Positions 44,639 through 60,470 of a stretch of 64,000 bases of DNA are shown in pieces. The stretch is from an uncultured Chthonomonadaceae bacterium. Its GTDB lineage: Bacteria > Armatimonadota > Chthonomonadetes > Chthonomonadales > Chthonomonadaceae. The notes beneath the pieces were generated by a model that worked only from the letters and a program-made list of their open reading frames with translations, was not told the DNA's origin and ran no database searches. Made by a program: the position numbers and the translations under genes. Each line of letters starts with the position of its first letter. The first letter of the stretch is position 1. The stretch lies in assembly GCA_963835065.1 (NCBI GenBank), contig CAWIEK010000045.1, positions 1 through 64,000 of the forward strand. The letters run 5' to 3'.

Positions 44639-46172
44639 CTAGTTCCCCGCTCCACCTGACGGCGGACGCGCCCCGCCGCCTGTTGTCACCGTAACCGGGC
44701 CGAACTTTTTCAAGCCTTCCTCGATCTGCGCCCGCTCACCGACGGCTACCAGTTGGATTTTGTTGTCACCGAGATACTTTTTCGCCACGCGCTGCACATC
44801 AGCAGGCGTGACAGCCGCAATCAGAGCCGGATAGTTGTCCCAATAGTCGCGGGGCAGGCCGTACTGCACCAGTTCCAGCGTCCGACCCAACACTCCCTCC
44901 GGGCTTTCCAGCGTGCGGGCGAAGCTGCCGATCAGGGCGCGTTTGGCGCGGGCGAGTTCGTCACTCGTCACGGGCTTGTCCTGTATGCGCTTGAACTCGT
45001 GGAAGAACTCTTTGACCGCGCCTTCCGTAACGGGAGTGCGGACGCTTGCGGTTGCCTGCCACAGCCCTGTCCAGCGCGGAGCCGTCAGACTGGAGTACGC
45101 GCCATACGTATAGCCCTTGTCTTCGCGCAGGTTCTGGAACAAGCGGGCGGATGCGCCGCCGCCCTAAAATGTGATTGGCGACGACGAGCGGAATGTAATC
45201 CGGGTCGGTGCGGCTGACGCCCGCGTTGGCAAACAGCAAATACGTTTGCGTGGACGCAGGACGGTCAATCAGATAGATGTGCGTTGTGTCTTTTGCCTTC
45301 ACATCCCCCGTCGGCAGGGTCGGCTCCTGCGCTCCCGGCTTCCAATCGGCTAAGGCGCGGGTAAAGTACGCGATCACGTCCTTTGCCTTGACATCTCCCG
45401 TCACGCCCAAGACCGCGCCGTTGGGATGGTAAAAGCCGTCGTAAAAAGCGCGTAAGTCTTCCGTTTTCAGGGCGCGGCGCTGCGTTGTCGTGGCAGGCTG
45501 ACGCGCAAACGGCGTACCCGCATAAAACAGGCGCTCCACCTGCCGCGCCGCCAGCGCGTTTGGACCGCCACCTCCACCGGGACCACCGGGACCACCGCCC
45601 CCACGCCTGCCGCCACCTCCACCGCCAAAGCCACCGCCGCCGCGCCCGTTCAAAGCGTTGTCCAGCCGATCCGAAGGGAACGTTGGATGCAGCAGTACGT
45701 CGGCTAGCAATTCTTGAAAAGCGTCCGCGTGGTCACTGGTTCCTCCAACCGTCAGGGTTGTGGTTTCCAAATTGGCGTTTGCCGACAAATTCGCGCCCCA
45801 ATCTTCCAGTGGCTGCGTAATGTCGGCAAACGAGCGCGACGTGGTTCCTTCCGTCAGCAGGGAAGCGGTCAGCTGCGCCAATCCGGGCTTGGGTTCCAGC
45901 AGGGTTCCGGCTTTCAGGGTCAGCGCCATACGGACGGTCGGCAGGTGATGGTTTTCCAGCACAAAAATGCGCAGGCCGTTGGGCAGCGTGGCTTCTACGG
46001 GGCGCGGCAGTTTCAATTGCAGCAGTTCGGAAGCGACGGGCGCTTTATTTTTCAAAATCGCGCGGCGTCCCGTATCGCCGCTCAGGTCTTCGCCCTCCTG
46101 CGCCCGCGCCACAAGCGACAGGCACAGCAAACCGGCGCACAATACTGGTATTTTCAAGAACGATTGGTTCAT
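44639..46172 (-). pseudogene. M16 peptidase, non-catalytic subunit, with a +1 frameshift near 45163
   Basis: LPNGLRIFV; removing one G at 45162-45164 restores ILGGGASARLFQNLREDKGYTYG. Confidence 0.8.
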
Positions 46173-48034: not shown

Positions 48035-48586
48035 TTATAACACACAAGGGCCTTCAATCAATGGCAGCAGATGCGCGGCTATTTTGGCGATGTTGCGGGC
48101 ATCATCTATGCCACGATGGTGGGTTCCCGATAGCGGGATGTTCAGCATTGCCAACGCGCCTCTCATGCCTGTCGGCTTGACGCTCTTCTGCCGCGAGAAC
48201 TCTTTCTTCAGGTTGATGTGGTTCTCGAACGAAGGCGGCAGTTCCATTTTGTGCCGTTCGCAATCCGTTCGGAACTGGTTCAGATCGTAAGCGCCCCACG
48301 AACACAGCCGAAACGGTTCTTCGCCAATCCAGTTGACGAACTGCGGAAACACGGCCCAGAAATAACCCGCCGCGTCTATATCTTCCTGCCGAATGGAAGT
48401 CAGCCGCGTACAAAACTCGCTCAACTGCGGCGAAGCAACCGGCTTGACAAACGCCGCAAACTCACGGCTGACTGTCCCCTCGCTCAACTCCAGCATCACC
48501 GCGCCGATTTCAATGATCTCCATTCGGCTCGGAGTTTGCCCCGTTTCCCAACAGGTTGCTTCCAAATCTACAATCACGTATCGCAT
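48035..48586 (-). CDS. DEDDh 3'-5' exonuclease (ERI-1/KapD-like)
   Basis: VIVDLEATC, EIIEIGAV, SWGAYD and HHRGIDDA. Confidence 0.92.
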   Translation of the reverse strand: MRYVIVDLEATCWETGQTPSRMEIIEIGAVMLELSEGTVSREFAAFVKPVASPQLSEFCTRLTSIRQEDIDAAGYFWAVFPQFVNWIGEEPFRLCSWGAYDLNQFRTDCERHKMELPPSFENHINLKKEFSRQKSVKPTGMRGALAMLNIPLSGTHHRGIDDARNIAKIAAHLLPLIEGPCVL

Positions 48587-48598
48587 GACATATCCTTG

Positions 48599-49234
48599 CT
48601 AAAACGGACGAACGGCAAAGTCGCCAAGCGTGACGGTGTAACTGTTCTGCTCGTTTCGCGCCACGTAGCTGACGATGGTTTCTCCGGCTATGGCGACGGC
48701 AAGCCCGACGAGATTGCGGGCAAGCGGGTAATCGCAAACATCATCGTTGACATCGGAGGGAACGCGGTACGCGCTGTTCCAGATGATTTCGGCGTAATCG
48801 CCCGCAAGCCCGACGTGCAGGCACGGCAGATTGGCTTTTTCGCAGGCGTCTTTAACCGCCTGCCGAGAACCGCTGTTGTCGAACGTGTCTACCACCAGAC
48901 CGCTTCCCGCCAGCAGTTTGCCCGCATTGGCCGGCGTCAGTTCTTCGGCATAAGGCTCCACTTTCACGGCAAGGGCGCGGTACAGCGTATTCGCCAGAAT
49001 TTTCGCTTTGTGCGCGCCAATGTCCGAACGGTAAAACGGCTGCGTGGATAGGTTGCGCTCCTCCACTCGATCCCGGTCAATCACGCGCAAGCGCCCAAAC
49101 CCCTGCCGCGCCAAACTCTCCACAAGATTCGCCCCCAACGCCCCACCCCCGCAAACCGTAACAGGCAGATCCTTCATCCGCCGCATCACCTCTCCGCTGC
49201 GGTAAAGTTGTTCATGATAAAGCGCGTCATTCAT
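48599..49234 (-). CDS. ThiF/E1-like adenylyltransferase
   Basis: CGGGALG, IDRDRVEERNLSTQ and VVDTFDN; C-terminal Cys in DDVCDY. Confidence 0.9.
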   Translation of the reverse strand: MNDALYHEQLYRSGEVMRRMKDLPVTVCGGGALGANLVESLARQGFGRLRVIDRDRVEERNLSTQPFYRSDIGAHKAKILANTLYRALAVKVEPYAEELTPANAGKLLAGSGLVVDTFDNSGSRQAVKDACEKANLPCLHVGLAGDYAEIIWNSAYRVPSDVNDDVCDYPLARNLVGLAVAIAGETIVSYVARNEQNSYTVTLGDFAVRPF

Positions 49235-49281: not shown

Positions 49282-50208
49282 TCAATACTCTTCGTCGTCC
49301 CAATAGCCGGGTTCGCGCTTTTCAATCACGCCTACGAGCGATTGCAGGTCGAACTTTTGGTCTTCCCCGCTCAGGCAGATGCCGGAACTGATGACCGTCA
49401 AATCTTGTTTGCTGATGGCGGAATGGTGGGCTTTGCCGTCACCCGTTGTCCATGCCACCTGCCAGAACTCGCCCTTGTCCTCATAACTGCGCAGGTTGCC
49501 GCCCGCGCCCTGCAACGCGCCGCGCAAGCGTTCCTCATCCCGCCGCACACTCAGGCGGTCGTAAAGTTCCTTAACTTGGGGCGCGTTCGGGTTGTAACGT
49601 TCGCCCACCAGCGCGTTGAAGGCCGTATCACTTTGCAGCGACAGTTCATAGGTGGCGCGCATCTCCGGCGTCAGTCCCGCAAAGCGCAGCGTTTCTGATG
49701 CCTCAACGCGCATTAGCGATTCCTGCAAGGCTTCGGCAGGCGCGGGGTCAGCGCGGCGATCCAGTGTTTCAAACCACCACGTTCGCCCATCCCCGCGAAC
49801 AATCACCTGCTCGAAACTGCGCGCGGCCTCCACCAGATGTACCAGCAAAGGACGCGCGCTGCCTACCTTTTGCTTGGCATCCGACTCGTTGACGGGGTAC
49901 GCCAGCCAGCTTCGATGCTGCAGCCGATGCACCAGCCGAACGCGCAGGGGCAGCAGTTTCCTCAGATACTCCTCAATCAGCATCAAGTCTGCCGTTTCCG
50001 CCACATCCGCGTTGCGCTCATCGCGGGGGCGAAACAACCCCCATCCTTCAAAGTCGCGCGGGCGCGGCGTAAACGTCTGCACGAGTCCGGCAATGCGCGT
50101 CCGCGCGGTTCCCCCACGGACGCAAGGCGCAAGAAACGTGGTTTCTCGCGCCTTTGCTTCTTCGGAAGCCATTTGTTTTAATAGATTCTGAATGTTGAAA
50201 CGGCTCAT
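49282..50208 (-). CDS. Hypothetical protein with a C-terminal SGICLSG motif (possible E2-like component)
   Basis: Long ORF inside the operon; ATG at 50208; function is inference only. Confidence 0.75.
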   Translation of the reverse strand: MSRFNIQNLLKQMASEEAKARETTFLAPCVRGGTARTRIAGLVQTFTPRPRDFEGWGLFRPRDERNADVAETADLMLIEEYLRKLLPLRVRLVHRLQHRSWLAYPVNESDAKQKVGSARPLLVHLVEAARSFEQVIVRGDGRTWWFETLDRRADPAPAEALQESLMRVEASETLRFAGLTPEMRATYELSLQSDTAFNALVGERYNPNAPQVKELYDRLSVRRDEERLRGALQGAGGNLRSYEDKGEFWQVAWTTGDGKAHHSAISKQDLTVISSGICLSGEDQKFDLQSLVGVIEKREPGYWDDEEY

Positions 50209-50454
50209 AATCGTCTGTTCGCGCGCAAGTTTGAAAAGCAAAGCGCTGTCATGTCAGTTGGCTCCGCCGGGCTGCTGTTACGCGCTCATTAAAGGGTGGC
50301 TGCTTCTAAGCCTACCTGCCGGGTTCATCGCGTCCCTGCCACTTCGCGCCCGTCCACAAACCGACTGTCGCCACAGCCTATATGTGAACGGTACTGTTCC
50401 TCTCGTACTTGTGTATGTAGGCTTCTGCGGTTGGGGCGCGCGAACTGACGATTA
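50208..50454 (-). ncRNA. Y-RNA-like ncRNA 3 carrying 23S rRNA mimics (sarcin-ricin loop and L11-binding GTPase centre)
   Basis: 18-bp closing stem with one mismatch; shared scaffold; AGUACGAGAGGA at 50409-50398; GGCUUAGAAGCAGCCACCCUUUAAUGAGCGCGUAACAGC within 50322-50267. Confidence 0.8.
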
Positions 50455-50524
50455 CGAGTTCCGTTACATCCTCTATCGCGCGCCTACCCCGTTTGCTAAA
50501 CGCATTGCTTCCAAAGCTCAATAC

Positions 50525-52012
<1,488 letters not shown>

Positions 52013-52107
52013 TCAGGTTTCAGGGATCAGGGCAATGCCGCTGCTTGGAAGATAGCACAAAGCAGTACGCATGTCCTGACCCCTGACCCCTGAAACCTGA
52101 CAAAGTC

Positions 52108-52234
52108 CTGCCTCGCATAAGTTCGGAAAGCTGTGGGTATACATAGGATTTGAACCTATAACAGTCTGGGTATCAACCAGATTGTCCTACCAATGGACAT
52201 GTATGTAAGCTTCCACAGTCAGGATGCGAGGCAG
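52108..52234 (-). ncRNA. Y-RNA-like ncRNA 2 with a tRNA-Ile(GAU)-like domain
   Basis: 11-bp closing stem; D arm GUCC-AUUGGUA-GGAC; anticodon arm UCUGG-UUGAUAC-CCAGA; T arm AUAGG-UUCAAAU-CCUAU. Confidence 0.8.
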
Positions 52235-52261
52235 AAGTGTCGTATGTGATTATAAAAGGGT

Positions 52262-52415
52262 TTTGTTCCGCGCAAGTTCCAAAAGCGGGTTTTCACTGGC
52301 GCTCTGCCACTGAGCTACAGCCGCCCAATGTATGCGGCTGACAGGATTCGAACCTGTGACTTCCCCATTAAGAGTGGAATGTGTGTACGCTTCTCGCGTC
52401 AGGGCGCGGAACAAA
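52262..52415 (-). ncRNA. YrlA-like ncRNA 1 with a circularly permuted tRNA-Lys(CUU)-like domain
   Basis: 12-bp closing stem; order is anticodon arm (CUCUUAA loop), T arm ACAGG-UUCGAAU-CCUGU, CAGCCGC, 9-nt loop, GCGGCUG, UA, D arm GCUC-AGUGGCA-GAGC. Confidence 0.85.
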
Positions 52416-52449
52416 CTGTCAAATTTGAACTATTCTCAACCCTCAACTC

Positions 52450-52871
<422 letters not shown>

Positions 52872-52981
52872 AGAAACACTGTGGAATGTGCTATATGTTT
52901 GTAGAAAGTTATTGTCCCTTTGCCACAAAAAATCTTCAACGGTTTATCACAAAGTAACGACTTAGGTTAGCACTTAAATTC

Positions 52982-54256
52982 ATGGCAATTAAATTCGTAG
53001 CACCCTCTAATGCAGACGCCGTGAGCGATCCTAAAACGATCCGGCACTATTTCATGCTCGTTTTCACAGGCTATTTAGGGTTAATCCTGATTAGCCCAAA
53101 AAGCGGGTTGGGATTACTGCCTCTCCGTTTTCTTCTGAAAAACCAACTGCATGTTACTGCAAAGGACATGGCGTTATTCCTCGCGGTAGGCACGTTTGCG
53201 CTTTACCTCAAGCCCTTAGCCGGAATTTTCACAGACAGCATTTTGCTGTTTGGAACCAGACATCGGCATTACTTTCTTTTTAGCGCCGCAGGCATTGCCA
53301 TCTTGTGGCTTGTTTTAGGTCTGGTTCCCAAAACCTATCCTGCTCTGCTTTGCGCCACAATCGCTTTGACCCTCTGCTGGACGGTGGCACAGACGACACT
53401 TGGCGGACTGGCTGTTGAAATCGGGAAAGAGCATGGCATACCGGGAAGGTTGGCCTCATTGCGGGAAGGTGCGGCAGCACTTACCATTTTGGTACGAGGG
53501 CCTGTTGGAGGCTTTCTCGCAACGCAAGCCTTTATTCTTTGCGCGTTTGTAAACGGCGCTCTCACTGCTTTACTGGCTCTGCTCTTCTTTTTCTGGTTAC
53601 AGGAAGCGCCCGGTGACCAAAATTATGAAGGAGCCTGGAACAGTGTGCGCGAACAATTCGGGCTTCTGTTTCAATCCCGCACCATGTGGGTTGCGACAGG
53701 CTTATATTGCTTGGTGTGTTTCAATCCGGCCTCGCATACCCCTTTGTTTTATTATCAATCAGAGAAACTTAAGTTCACGCCTGAGTTTATCGGCAAGCTT
53801 GGAGTTATCAATGGCGCTTTAGATTTAACCGGCGCGATCCTTTATGCGTTTGCCTGTAAACGTCTGCGCCTCCAAACATTATTAACCATAGGTATCTGTA
53901 TCAACACGCTCTCAGCCCTGCTGTACCTCGCTTATCGCTCTCATAATTCGGCGATGGTTCTCGAAGGAGCCGAGGGACTGGGATTTGGTTTGGCAACACT
54001 CCCACTCCTCGATTTACTGGCCCGCGCAACGCCGAAATATTGTGAGGCATTCGGCTATGCTCTGATGTTCAGTTTGGGATATGCGTCTGTTGCGCTCTCC
54101 GACGTGGTTGGCTCATGGGTGTTCGACCACTATCATCATAATTTCTCGCTGTTAATCTGGCTGAACGCCGGAACGACCGCTTTAGTCTTCCTGGCAGTTC
54201 CCTTCCTGCCGCGCGCCGTGATCAGGTGGCGGGATGGCGAAAGTATGCCTGACTGA
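52982..54256 (+). CDS. MFS transporter (BT1-like)
   Basis: About 12 TM; TDSILLFGTRHRHY and LLARATPKYCEA; paralog of 19445-20809. Confidence 0.8.
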   Translation: MAIKFVAPSNADAVSDPKTIRHYFMLVFTGYLGLILISPKSGLGLLPLRFLLKNQLHVTAKDMALFLAVGTFALYLKPLAGIFTDSILLFGTRHRHYFLFSAAGIAILWLVLGLVPKTYPALLCATIALTLCWTVAQTTLGGLAVEIGKEHGIPGRLASLREGAAALTILVRGPVGGFLATQAFILCAFVNGALTALLALLFFFWLQEAPGDQNYEGAWNSVREQFGLLFQSRTMWVATGLYCLVCFNPASHTPLFYYQSEKLKFTPEFIGKLGVINGALDLTGAILYAFACKRLRLQTLLTIGICINTLSALLYLAYRSHNSAMVLEGAEGLGFGLATLPLLDLLARATPKYCEAFGYALMFSLGYASVALSDVVGSWVFDHYHHNFSLLIWLNAGTTALVFLAVPFLPRAVIRWRDGESMPD

Positions 54257-55499: not shown

Positions 55500-56783
55500 T
55501 TAGAGTTGACGCGCCAATTGATCCAGCTTTTTCTGTCGCGCAGGGAGGGGAGCCAGCATCAGCAGCGCCTGTGTTTCGTCGAGGTAACGCGCGGCGGCAC
55601 TCGTGTCTCCTGCCGCCAGGTACACCTCCGCCCATATCATCAGTTCATGGATGTGCCTGTCGCCCAAGGAAAAGGGAGGAAGCCACGCCAGCGCGTCGCC
55701 AGGCTTGCCGCTGCTCAAGAGGACGCGCGCTTTTGCAAGGCGAAAATGCCTGGCTTCTTTTTCATCTCTGTTACAACTGTCCGGCAAGCATTGCTCCGCC
55801 TGCCGGATGAAAGACGCCGCCTCGTCATGGCGATGGGCCTTGCCGGCGTACACGGCCATATCGCTCAAAAGGGAGGAGTGCAGCGCGGGAGGCAGCAGGC
55901 GCAGCCAGGGATACAGCAGTTTGACGCCATTCTCCGGGCCGCTTGCCCCGTTCGCGGCGTGTGAGGAGAGAATATTGAGCGCGGTTGAGCAGAATTGCGC
56001 CGGCGCAATTCCGCCCCGCGCCAGTTTCAGTACGCGCCAGCTTACCGCGCAGGCGTCGGCTGTGCGCCCATGCATACTCAGCCACCAGCCATGCTGTGAT
56101 TCCAACTCCGCCAGGAGCGGCAATGCCTCCTCCGATCCCTCCAACAGCAGTCGCAGTTGGCGTTTCAGCGCCAGGAAGTACAAATCCGCCAGGGGTAGGA
56201 GCGTGAAATTACCTTCATGAATCTGCATCAGGGTTTCATATTGCTGCCAACACTCTTCCAGCGTCAGGTGAGGCGGCCATTGCGGGAGAGATAGACGCCC
56301 GGATTGTAAAATAGCCTGTTCCTGCGGCGAAGCGCGAAGGGCGCAGCACAAACGCGCCATATCCTCGTGGGAAGGGAGCGTTCTCGTGGCCTCCCAACGG
56401 ATAATTGTCGCTCGATTAACTCCCATTTCAACGGCAAGCTGCTCCTGCGTCGAGCCGTGCCGCGTTCGCATGGCGCGAAGCAAGTCGCCGATACCTGGCA
56501 TCGGCCCCAGCAGGGGTGTTGCATTGTTGCCCGTTCCCCCGCTGCCGAAAGTCGCGTGGAGACTGCGCCGGCCAGGCAGCAGCACATAAATTTGCGCTCG
56601 CTCCTTTGGCGTCGCTTCCAGCGCGGCCAGGACGTTTTCCAGTTCTATCGCGCGGGGCTGCTGCTGATCGGCCTCCCAGTAGCGCAGCGTCCGCGCGGTT
56701 ATTTGCGCGGACGCCGCCAGCCGTTCCTGCGATAACCCCCGTTTCCGGCGCAACTCGCGCAGGGCTTCCCCCAAACGATACAT
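55500..56783 (-). CDS. Tandem XRE HTH regulator with a helical TPR-like C-terminus
   Basis: LRELRRKRGLSQERLA...YWE and MRTRHGSTQEQLA...RWE. Confidence 0.85.
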   Translation of the reverse strand: MYRLGEALRELRRKRGLSQERLAASAQITARTLRYWEADQQQPRAIELENVLAALEATPKERAQIYVLLPGRRSLHATFGSGGTGNNATPLLGPMPGIGDLLRAMRTRHGSTQEQLAVEMGVNRATIIRWEATRTLPSHEDMARLCCALRASPQEQAILQSGRLSLPQWPPHLTLEECWQQYETLMQIHEGNFTLLPLADLYFLALKRQLRLLLEGSEEALPLLAELESQHGWWLSMHGRTADACAVSWRVLKLARGGIAPAQFCSTALNILSSHAANGASGPENGVKLLYPWLRLLPPALHSSLLSDMAVYAGKAHRHDEAASFIRQAEQCLPDSCNRDEKEARHFRLAKARVLLSSGKPGDALAWLPPFSLGDRHIHELMIWAEVYLAAGDTSAAARYLDETQALLMLAPLPARQKKLDQLARQL

Positions 56784-57079
56784 TTCACAACCCCTCCCCA
56801 AAGTTATATTGAATCATTATTCTCCTGCCCGCTTTATTCCTGCTCAACGCCGTCGCCCTGCACCGGAATAAAACCTGTAACATCGGAATATCACCTGTAA
56901 CATTTGCGGGTTTGGCACGAAAGTTGCAGGGATATAGATGAGGACGCCTATTTCATCCAAAAAGGTGGTTTAGGCTGAAATTCACCCTTGTTTTCGGGCA
57001 TCCGATTCCCGCGCAAGCGCTGCAACCGGCGTGTGCTTCTGCCTGAAACTTCTCACCACGACACGAAAGGAACACGCGC

Positions 57080-59177: not shown

Positions 59178-60470
59178 TTAGAGTTGCCGCGCCAATTGAT
59201 CCAGCGTTTTCTGGCGGGCAGGCAAGGGAGCCAGAGTCAGCAGCGCCTGTGATTCGTTCAGACAGCGCGCGGCGGCGTCCTTCTCCCCAGCGGCCAGATA
59301 CATCTCCGCCCATATCATCAGTTCATGGATATGTCCGTCGCCGGCGGCAACGGGCGGAAGCCAGTCTAATGCCTCAAGCGCCTTGCCGTGGAGCAAAAGA
59401 ACGCGCGCTTTCGTCATGTGAAAATAGTCTCTGTTTATTTTACTTTCCTGGCCCCGGCTATGCAAAGACCGCTCCGCCTGCTGAAGAAACGAGGCGGCTT
59501 CCTCCTGGCGGCGTGCCATGCCCGCATACAGGGCCATATCGCATAGAAGGCAGATGTGCAGCGCAGGAGAAAGCAGGCGCAGCCAGGGATACAGCAGCTT
59601 GACGCCATTTTCCGGCCCGCCGGCGCCACTCATGGCATGGGCGGAAAGGATGTTGAGAGCGTCCACAAAAAAATAATCCGGGGCTGTCGCGCCCCGCGTC
59701 AGGTTCAGCGCGCGCCAGTTCCCCGCGCAGGCCTCGGCTTTGCGCCCTTGCATAAACAGCCACCAGCCATGCAGCGCCTCCACTTTCGCTAACAACGACA
59801 AAGCCTCGGAAGACTGGCTTAACAGCGGACGCAACTGAAGCTTCAAGGCCAGCGCGTACAAATCCATCAGGGGAAGAAGCGCGAAGTCACCCTTGCGTAT
59901 CTGCATCAGGGTTTCATACTGTTGGCGACACTCCTCCAGCGTCAATTGCGGCGGCCAATGTGAAGGAGAGAGACGCCCCGACTGCAAGGCCGCCAGCTCA
60001 TGCGGCAAAGCGCCAAGCACACCGCACAAACGCGCGCTATCGTCTTCGGAAGGAACCGTCCGCGTGGATTCCCATCGAAATATGGTTGACCGGTTGATAC
60101 GCATCTCATCAGCAAATTGCTCCTGTGTCCAGCCGCGCCGCATACGCATAGTCCGTATCATATCCCCTGAGCCGGGGAGTGGGCCGAGCAAACTTGCCGG
60201 AATATTCCGTGTTCCCTCGCCTTGCTGCACGAGAGGATTTCGACGACGATCCGGCAATAGCGCGTAGATTTCCACCCGCTCTGACGGGGTCGCTTCCAGC
60301 GCTTTTAGTACATTTTCCAACTCCACGAGGCGTGGCATCTGATAGTTATCAGACTCCCAGTAACGCAGCGTCCGGGGCGTAATCCGCGCCTGTATCGCCA
60401 CTTGTTCCTGCGACATACCCCGCTTCAGGCGCAAAGCGCGTAAACTATGTCCCAAACGATACACCGCCAC
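59178..60470 (-). CDS. Tandem XRE HTH regulator with a TPR-like C-terminus (paralog of 55500-56783)
   Basis: Shares GPENGVKLLYPWLRLL, HIHELMIWAE and LDQLARQL with the paralog. Confidence 0.85.
   Translation of the reverse strand: MAVYRLGHSLRALRLKRGMSQEQVAIQARITPRTLRYWESDNYQMPRLVELENVLKALEATPSERVEIYALLPDRRRNPLVQQGEGTRNIPASLLGPLPGSGDMIRTMRMRRGWTQEQFADEMRINRSTIFRWESTRTVPSEDDSARLCGVLGALPHELAALQSGRLSPSHWPPQLTLEECRQQYETLMQIRKGDFALLPLMDLYALALKLQLRPLLSQSSEALSLLAKVEALHGWWLFMQGRKAEACAGNWRALNLTRGATAPDYFFVDALNILSAHAMSGAGGPENGVKLLYPWLRLLSPALHICLLCDMALYAGMARRQEEAASFLQQAERSLHSRGQESKINRDYFHMTKARVLLLHGKALEALDWLPPVAAGDGHIHELMIWAEMYLAAGEKDAAARCLNESQALLTLAPLPARQKTLDQLARQL

Follow-up and report, generated by a model that had tools for sequence, protein, structure and literature searches.

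A predicted RNA joining copies of the sarcin-ricin loop and helices 42–44 of 23S rRNA on a stem shared with tRNA-like RNAs, near a Ro60-like gene

Why should copies of two parts of the ribosomal factor-binding center stand side by side, in the reverse of their ribosomal order, between two protein genes? The locus that raises this question is on the minus strand of a 64,000-nucleotide stretch of DNA (contig CAWIEK010000045.1, positions 1 to 64,000; assembly GCA_963835065.1) from an uncultured Chthonomonadaceae bacterium of the phylum Armatimonadota. This whole stretch is called the window, and its coordinates are used throughout. An initial annotation had proposed here a noncoding RNA (ncRNA) that unites 23S rRNA's sarcin-ricin loop (SRL) and GTPase-associated center (GAC). 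A conserved joined element is indeed present; that reading was nevertheless incomplete, having missed helix 42, a shared closing stem and a Ro60-like gene alongside. The copy of the SRL and helices 42–44 sits on a closing stem, here called the carrier stem, that is common to tRNA-like sister RNAs. Our preferred answer, held tentatively and at somewhat less than even confidence, is that this is a Y-RNA-like RNA held by a Ro60-like ring, serving as bait, whether decoy or sentinel, for toxins whose target, by cutting or modification, is the factor-binding center of the ribosome.

Two 23S rRNA elements outside rRNA

The core of the predicted RNA occupies 50218–50446 (minus strand), with the SRL 12-mer followed by a copy of 23S helices 42–44 that includes the kink-turn. 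The 12-mer (50409–50398) is exact, as annotated; the 8.0-Mb genome has three instances of it, the other two being in complete 23S genes. The GAC copy (50267–50322), which had been aligned to 23S rRNA by hand, matches the Rfam bacterial large-subunit (LSU) rRNA model at model positions 1093–1148 (38.5 bits, E 1.2e-9 in a single-family search, under the 50-bit cut-off) and aligns without gaps to the genome's own 23S with 45/56 bases identical; no other site in the whole genome reaches 34/56 against the GAC segment. Positions within it are given in what we take to be E. coli numbering, assigned by ungapped counting. The A1067 and A1095 equivalents said to be retained are present in the window copy.

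In the genome's own 23S the GAC starts at 1236 and the SRL lies at 2976, about 1,740 nt apart and in the order opposite to that of the element, which agrees with what had been claimed. Homology extends past the GAC copy across helix 42 and its kink-turn, and the LSU match of one family member covers model positions 1076–1161, that is, helices 42–44. Beyond this segment no colinear 23S homology was found: only model 1076–1161 and the SRL match, and in reverse order. Searched against Rfam at gathering level, the whole window gave a match to a tRNA-like sister RNA alone, and a search at E up to 10 over 49900–53000 gave nothing on the SRL+GAC element. Promoter and terminator scans gave results at chance level.

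A chimeric assembly had been named as a risk. An independent contig from another run crosses the whole locus (50084–51174), from the gene upstream through the element to the gene downstream; it differs at 68 letters and has 5 gaps. A 167-base record from a further run, possibly the run from which the window itself derives, equals 50333–50499 exactly.

Anatomy of the RNA

Read from its 5′ end, the predicted RNA opens with the carrier stem, which contains an internal loop, and a conserved motif. The SRL and a variable hairpin come next, and a 3-bp junction helix leads into helix 42, kink-turn included, and helices 43–44, before the 3′ strands return. Model R1, cited below, is a covariance model built from 33 copies, window sequence excluded.

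50218–50446, minus strand: predicted RNA core (carrier stem, SRL, variable hairpin, helices 42–44); matches R1 positions 1–210, 141.3 bits, E 6e-47
50413–50446, minus strand: carrier stem 5′ arm, with the conserved motif at 50425–50413, of which 50415–50413 double as the 5′ side of the SRL helix
50398–50409, minus strand: SRL 12-mer, closed by 50415–50413 with 50394–50392
50350–50391, minus strand: variable hairpin that separates SRL from helix 42, of greater length in the window copy; 6/6 modeled pairs have two-sided changes in the family
50323–50349, minus strand: 3-bp junction helix (50349–50347 with 50245–50243) and 5′ strand of the helix-42 copy, with kink-turn
50267–50322, minus strand: GAC copy (helices 43–44, the L11-binding domain), with C-C-G at the triple 1072/1092/1099
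50243–50266, minus strand: 3′ strands of the helix-42 copy and junction helix
50218–50240, minus strand: carrier stem 3′ arm
50196–50468, minus strand: extended closing helix of the window copy (50468–50436 with 50226–50196), with the start codon of the next gene inside

The final three bases of the conserved motif close the SRL helix. The closing stem of the SRL had been called degenerate; it is instead a different 3-bp helix, whose 3′ side is paired in 49, 48 and 46 of the 49 distinct copies. Flank pairing beyond the model, as in the extended helix, occurs in only 10/48 copies.

A family of copies

Ten loci were taken by way of the upstream protein; three carry the element, and the genome of a fourth has it on another contig. 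A metagenome search used the SRL plus seven upstream bases as its pattern, leaving the GAC copy out of it. Of the 40 loci returned, 35 are full-length, including 4 duplicates; contig ends truncate 3 more, and 2 are broken. The GAC copy follows the pattern in 37 of the 40. One broken copy has lost all the sequence from the SRL to the 3′ arm, the other the part that follows the SRL (L053:1941-2065, L038:833-973). Cultured cyanobacteria carry the RNA on plasmids, namely those of Dolichospermum flos-aquae CCAP 1403/13F and Kovacikia minuta CCNUW1.

Our final alignment has 50 rows, 49 of them distinct, with some close relatives among these. Across the distinct rows 92.7% of cells are paired, against 31–51% with slid partners, and two-sided changes occur at 34/51 pairs; these counts lean upward, because the structure was hand-drawn from the same sequences and the alignment fitted to the structure. 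An unfitted MAFFT alignment of 33 copies gave 93.0% paired and two-sided changes at 29/51 pairs. Helix 1 has two-sided changes at 8/9 of its pairs and is 92.7% paired, and helix 3 is 96.3% paired. The SRL 12-mer is exact in 17/18 distinct copies that the SRL pattern had not retrieved (most of these came from a model that itself includes the SRL), and also in L124, found last and held out. Both motifs recur across the aligned family, conservation being a check that the annotation had named.

For 47/49 copies the nearest sequence is another copy rather than an rRNA, the window copy being one of the two ties. We therefore consider the RNA an old lineage of its own, one in which the SRL and the architecture for binding L10/L11 have been kept. 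As to a possible archaeal origin, the top-scoring LSU model is bacterial for 4 of the 6 copies scored. Several copies score above Rfam's LSU rRNA cut-off, and such copies may be mis-annotated as rRNA fragments.

Viral contigs searched with three patterns gave no match. Among 61 relatives of the window's genome (best 39 candidates per genome) a full-length match was found in G000 alone; the other matches cover model positions 87–181 only and were read as rRNA. Another genome (G027) has twelve GAC matches of differing sequence on many small contigs, probably mixed rRNA fragments in the assembly.

A conserved tertiary core with drifting loop tips

The ribosome has a base triple at 1072, 1092 and 1099, described in PMC2952862. 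In the family this triple is U-U-A in 43 copies, C-C-G in 5 (window included) and C-U-A in 1 of 49; the held-out L124 also has C-C-G. Because it switches as a unit (48/49 concordant), the fold appears to be under selection, and there may be few independent events behind the switch. All 13 distinct rRNA segments compared, of which 12 come from the window's order and 1 is cyanobacterial, have C-C-G at the triple. The G1071-G1091-C1100 combination is kept in 49/49 copies, U1060-A1088 in 48/49 and the kink-turn pattern in 46/49, so that, at the level of sequence, the whole tertiary core of the L10/L11-binding domain (triples, U1060-A1088, kink-turn) is present.

Two G-C pairs had been called compensatory. 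Both G1054-C1105 and G1058-C1080 are there; only the first is diagnostic, because G-C at 1058/1080 occurs in 5/13 rRNAs as well, whereas 45/49 copies have G1054-C1105 in place of the rRNA A-U. The 1087–1102 region was rightly described as degenerate for the window copy, which has a G/G mismatch there (and U1082/U1086 besides), though not for the family, in which 44/49 members keep G-C.

The loop tips behave differently. A1067 is retained in 38 of 49 copies, G1068 in 25, A1095 in 40, A1096 in 37, G1056 in 28 and U1061 in 16, with 1097 variable, while A1067, G1068, A1095, G1056 and U1061 are nearly fixed in the 13 rRNAs. The fold of helices 42–44 is, judging from these patterns, selected while the A1067/A1095 loop tips drift. 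In the ribosome these tips contact factors, and the drift of A1067 and A1095 (kept in 38 and 40 of 49) speaks somewhat against faithful factor contact.

The carrier stem and its sister RNAs

The covariance model also catches shorter elements with the same ends. A scan for the motif plus duplex found 121 distinct carrier elements: 45 tRNA-like, 44 SRL+GAC, 13 short, 11 of a class X, 7 other and 1 bearing another part of 23S. Two sisters lie in the window:

52112–52232, minus strand: sister RNA, its tRNA-like payload borne on the shared carrier stem; Rfam tRNA at 52138–52204, 37.3 bits; no call by ARAGORN
52266–52412, minus strand: sister RNA, its tRNA-like payload circularly permuted and borne on the shared carrier stem; Rfam YrlA at 52298–52364, 32.3 bits (cut-off 69)

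The two have Ile(GAU)-type and Lys(CUU)-type loops, and such loops differ widely across loci. Between the first sister and the start of the Ro60-like gene is a short tandem-repeat hairpin (51998–52112), with related sequence on other contigs. At other loci, tRNA-like payloads have a T-loop broken by insertion of a short palindromic repeat (L008:3543-3936, L108:5749, L113:10764, L114:7839).

The single payload from elsewhere in 23S (L048:824-1009, plus strand) has 22/23 bases identical to another segment of the genome's own 23S, which beats 100/100 shuffles; several hairpins follow. It represents a second type of rRNA mimic and was seen once. We take that segment to be helix 69/71. Class X consists of two conserved hairpins on the same carrier, with most of its 11 copies just upstream of a Ro60-like gene (e.g., L107:10220-10288, minus strand; L009:1049-1123, plus strand). 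Class X gave no significant match to the genome's own rRNA operon (at least 2/100 shuffles as good in the four copies tested with shuffles) and has no match in Rfam.

A Ro60-like protein and its co-occurrence with the RNA

The gene upstream of the RNA encodes a protein whose predicted structure points to the Ro60/Rsr family:

50525–51979, minus strand: 484-aa helical-repeat and vWA protein with predicted Ro60/Rsr fold, ~15% identity; AlphaFold pLDDT 79; Foldseek TMq 0.69, E 1.8e-12

Eleven Ro60 chains rank first in Foldseek over the whole length (TMq 0.59–0.69). In Pfam the protein matches no TROVE domain at E 0.1 and only VWA_2 (E 0.0085). Among 63 of its relatives, which number at least 2,782 in all, vWA_Ro60 appears weakly in 3, and TROVE is absent among the best 25 of 33 families. 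The helical-repeat ring and vWA fold of the Ro60/Rsr family are therefore predicted here, with no TROVE or vWA_Ro60 sequence match above cut-off.

We counted the RNA and the Ro60-like protein in sets of genomes. Among 151 cyanobacterial genomes (best 15 candidates scored per genome, one of the genomes being the chosen centre) 10 have the RNA and 15 the protein; every genome with the RNA also has the protein, and none of the 136 without the protein has the RNA. For the window's phylum, also 151 genomes, the figures are 2 and 8; both genomes with the RNA have the protein, and the RNA is in 0/143 of those lacking it. In 72,556 plasmids the two were found in the same 2 records. A 595-kb phage (LR756511.1; L080:6086-9238) has Ro60-like, ubiquitin-like (Ubl-like), 309-aa protein and ThiF genes with about 8 carrier-like elements bearing a variant motif; no SRL+GAC copy was found there within 10 kb.

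Neighboring genes

Four further genes of the window's operon flank those described above:

48035–48586, minus strand: DEDDh 3′-5′ exonuclease; Pfam PF00929, E 5e-20
48599–49234, minus strand: ThiF/E1-family enzyme; Pfam PF00899, E 8e-27
49282–50211, minus strand: 309-aa conserved protein, N-terminal part weakly predicted to be OB-fold-like (Z ~7)
52450–52650, minus strand: 66-aa conserved protein with a glycine end, putatively ubiquitin-like; no Pfam match

The 66-aa protein is read as ubiquitin-like because of its glycine end and the ThiF gene. The 309-aa protein has no match in Pfam, NCBIfam, PADLOC or Atlas, and no PDB sequence match below E 0.4. An E2-like role for its C-terminal cysteine motif was considered, found no support and was dropped.

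Within 3 kb of 48 RNA loci (one representative scanned per cluster, many of the loci short) the frequent neighbors are NADAR (14), KptA/Tpt1 (12), AAA ATPase (11), an unknown 290-aa protein (8) and the 309-aa protein (8), followed by ThiF (7), the Ro60-like gene (6), PARG-type macro domain (4), DUF4291 (4) and NUDIX (3). A tRNA gene lies within 400 nt of the RNA in 12/47 copies, and copies of the RNA and Ro60-like gene occur in or beside spare-tRNA arrays with an HNH gene.

The neighborhood of the Ro60-like gene was examined at 28 loci: 13 have the 309-aa gene, 10 ThiF, 4 an L7/L12 paralog and 2 an intact EF-Tu paralog, and Ubl-like matches are widespread. The EF-Tu paralogs have an intact P-loop and catalytic His and lie between the Ubl-like and Ro60-like genes. 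Extra cyanobacterial L7/L12 and EF-Tu genes inside the Ro60-like operon are at L111:6212-7865 (plus strand), L114:6326-7555 (minus strand), L008:3918-4376, L009:3937-4320 and L010:3741-4130. At least two L12 genes are present in 9/15 genomes with a Ro60-like gene versus 15/136 without; for only 2 of these 9 genomes could the second copy be located within the operon. The window's genome has a single L12 gene, and its operon has neither an L7/L12 nor an EF-Tu paralog. No L10 paralog was found in the Ro60-like loci searched.

Elsewhere in the window, the second subunit of an M16 peptidase (44639–46172, minus strand) seems split into overlapping frames, 44961–46172 and 44639–45142, possibly by a frameshift. 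Related regulators with double helix-turn-helix (55500–56801, minus strand, and 59178–60470, plus strand) face outward around PEP-CTERM-like genes, these labels coming from sequence reading.

What the RNA may do

If the RNA is bait, the operon would be transcribed under translation stress and the RNAs released from the transcript, and the Ro60-like protein would bind the carrier stem. Helices 42–44 would fold as in the ribosome and recruit host L11 and L10-L7/L12, giving a particle that resembles the stalk base with an adjacent SRL. SRL nucleases, glycosidases and ADP-ribosyltransferases would then hit this cheap copy instead of 50S subunits, while nearby NADAR, PARG, KptA and ligases would reverse or clear the damage, and spare tRNAs, EF-Tu and L7/L12 would replace damaged parts. 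We favor bait because the payloads make up a panel of different translation substrates, because both rRNA sites are toxin targets, and because the neighbors remove ADP-ribose or heal RNA ends and include spare parts. Tre23 ADP-ribosylates helix 44 near 1095–1098, according to a passage of PMC8661411, whose reference list also points to cleavage of the SRL by VapC20. Such a panel is more readily understood as bait than as one machine. True bait would be an RNA-based defense against toxins aimed at the ribosome, and would offer a clue to the still unsettled role of bacterial Ro60-Y RNA particles.

A good deal weighs against this. Copies vary in the helix-44 loop, the site of Tre23 modification (A1095 40/49, A1096 37/49, 1097 variable), where a perfect bait might keep it; the drift of the loop tips weakens the case for bait directed at helix-44 toxins too. 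The invariant SRL fits GTPase activation just as well, and the intact EF-Tu (2/28) and L7/L12 (4/28) paralogs fit a factor-recruiting machine at least as well. None of the PADLOC defense models matches the Ro60-like or the 309-aa protein. The protein occurs without the RNA in 5/15 cyanobacterial genomes and in 6/8 of the window's phylum, and several genomes have the RNA on another contig or far off, often among tRNA genes; RNA and protein gene do not lie within 4 kb in every case. YrlA's GNCGAA motif is in the first 30 nt of 0/49 copies; the carrier lacking it, the argument for binding by the Ro60-like protein comes from co-occurrence, which was counted over related, and so not independent, genomes.

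The main rival, possible though in our view rather unlikely, is a surrogate factor-binding center. Loaded with L11 and L10-L7/L12, the RNA would tether EF-Tu or EF-G at the Ro60-like ring in the way that Yrn1 links PNPase with Rsr, triggering or sequestering the GTPase off ribosomes, e.g., for unloading damaged tRNA for trimming or repair, or for throttling elongation. The retained L10/L11-binding features, the invariant SRL, the paralogs of EF-Tu and L7/L12 at Ro60-like loci and the excess of L12 genes in genomes with the Ro60-like gene all fit, and tethering by a Y RNA is established in D. radiodurans, as reported in part of PMC4201824. The drift at five positions nearly fixed in 13 rRNAs, the one L12 gene of the window's genome and the lack of an L10 paralog in the loci searched stand on the other side, and spare EF-Tu and L12 would equally be expected if they were spare parts. 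Still a little less likely is a specific form of this, a ribosome-free GTPase-activating center, in which the Ro60-held RNA assembles L11 and L10-L7/L12 by the SRL and, with a dedicated EF-Tu and tRNA-shaped sisters, engages translational GTPases off the ribosome, as one of a modular set of RNAs showing the working sites of translation on one handle. Should the RNA engage EF-Tu or EF-G, it would be a natural minimal GTPase-activating center, in which the sufficiency of SRL and stalk base becomes directly testable. We think it improbable that the RNA is a guide for repair or a standing substrate, which would dock rRNA-healing enzymes (NADAR, PARG, KptA, ligase) on the ring by presenting the structure that they act on or, when damaged, switch on a ThiF/Ubl-like alarm. 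NADAR or KptA genes do closely follow the RNA at many loci, and ThiF, the 309-aa gene and Ubl-like matches are common at Ro60-like loci; however, none of the enzymes goes with the RNA at every locus (14/48 at most), the window's own operon has no NADAR, PARG, KptA or ligase, and this explanation overlaps the sentinel form of bait.

The remaining explanations make less of the RNA. That it is a cis-acting leader, sensing free L10/L11 or a factor and controlling the gene behind it, seems quite improbable to us: a same-strand open reading frame of at least 100 codons does start within 200 nt downstream in 35/47 copies (a mechanical count, with some frames perhaps spurious), and the window's closing helix covers the next start codon, but the extended helix is in 10/48 copies only, the downstream gene is not the same from one locus to another and, in the clusters examined, never encodes a ribosomal protein, none of Rfam's leader families matches, and the 5′ and 3′ ends form the same carrier as in stand-alone tRNA-like elements. 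A sponge for thiopeptide antibiotics, which bind the cleft between L11 and helices 43/44, would draw on the conserved L11-binding fold, but is highly improbable, since A1067 and A1095, which we take to be needed for a thiostrepton-type drug, are replaced or missing in 11/49 and replaced in 9/49 copies, respectively; the invariant SRL and the sister RNAs would be left unexplained. This region is indeed called the thiostrepton loop in the relevant part of PMC8661411. Least credible, and already largely refuted, is a functionless decayed rRNA fragment or assembly chimera. The 45/56 identity to the genome's own 23S, the mismatches of the window copy at 1082/1086 and 1087/1102 and the two broken copies among 40 metagenome matches (L038, L053) could be so read. 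Order and spacing are fixed in 49 distinct copies, however, the non-rRNA stems covary, family-specific substitutions are absent from rRNA, and 47/49 copies are nearest to another copy. Those 49 full-length copies, the two named plasmids and the independent contig together bear out the earlier claim that this is a free-standing element and no simple rRNA fragment.

Comparison with known systems

Ribosomal-protein leaders such as the L10 leader are nonribosomal RNAs that copy the stalk-base site; they are cis-acting, precede ribosomal-protein operons and have a small motif only. The RNA described here differs in having the SRL and a closed carrier stem, and in matching no Rfam leader. With helix 95 and helices 42–44 of 23S rRNA (RF02541; sections of PMC2952862) it shares the exact SRL 12-mer, the helix 43/44 pairs, the base triples and the kink-turn. 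The differences are that the two elements are here in reverse order and ~75–90 nt apart rather than ~1,740, with no other rRNA around them, that most copies have the U-U-A triple and G1054-C1105, and that the loop tips drift.

ROT/TROVE proteins were reportedly presented as RNA-repair platforms by Burroughs and Aravind in 2016. In the portion of PMC7824862 used here they are such platforms with a tRNA-like partner, the only kind of partner named there. The likeness is a Ro-like ring with structured RNAs among genes for RNA end-healing and ADP-ribose processing; the difference is the rRNA-like partner. The cyanobacterial trn operon, which is induced by translational stress (PMC10272220), resembles the spare-tRNA arrays with an HNH gene in or next to which the RNA and Ro60-like copies occur; none of the terms TROVE, Ro60, Y RNA and vWA appears in that paper. 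By titles and abstract beginnings we found no description of a Y RNA or other ncRNA mimicking rRNA or the SRL, though Burroughs and Aravind 2016, two Wolin-lab reviews or supplements may mention one.

The closest likeness is to the bacterial Y RNAs YrlA, YrlB and Yrn1 with Rsr, which have a tRNA-like domain and tether Rsr to PNPase, the role demonstrated for Yrn1 in D. radiodurans (from passages of PMC4201824 and PMC12135203). Shared features are a long 5′/3′ stem with an internal loop holding a mimic module, several RNAs per locus, location on the same strand near a Ro60-fold gene, a YUAY-like motif atop the stem (40/49) and the weak match of one window sister (52298–52364) to YrlA (RF02553). 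YrlA itself gave no match over 50218–50446 at E up to 10, and the payload of the window RNA has no tRNA-like T and D stem-loops, matching LSU rRNA instead; in part of PMC4201824 the motif GNCGAA(N0-1)G near the 5′ end is defined for YrlA-type Y RNA. The RNA is accordingly not filed as YrlA, lacking the score, the tRNA domain and GNCGAA, while it has, as far as sequence can tell, the broad Y-RNA features: 5′ and 3′ ends that pair into a long stem holding an internal loop, and a Ro60-fold protein encoded along with the RNA. It further differs in its length (~210–230 nt versus 80–130) and in its partner, a protein ~15% identical to Rsr/Ro60, without a Pfam TROVE match and paired with the RNA from gene evidence. 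Known bacterial Y RNAs mimic tRNA; here two distant elements of 23S rRNA, SRL and helices 42–44, are joined within ~210 nt and apparently selected to keep their tertiary fold, so that this family would extend the modular design of Y RNAs to the ribosome itself.

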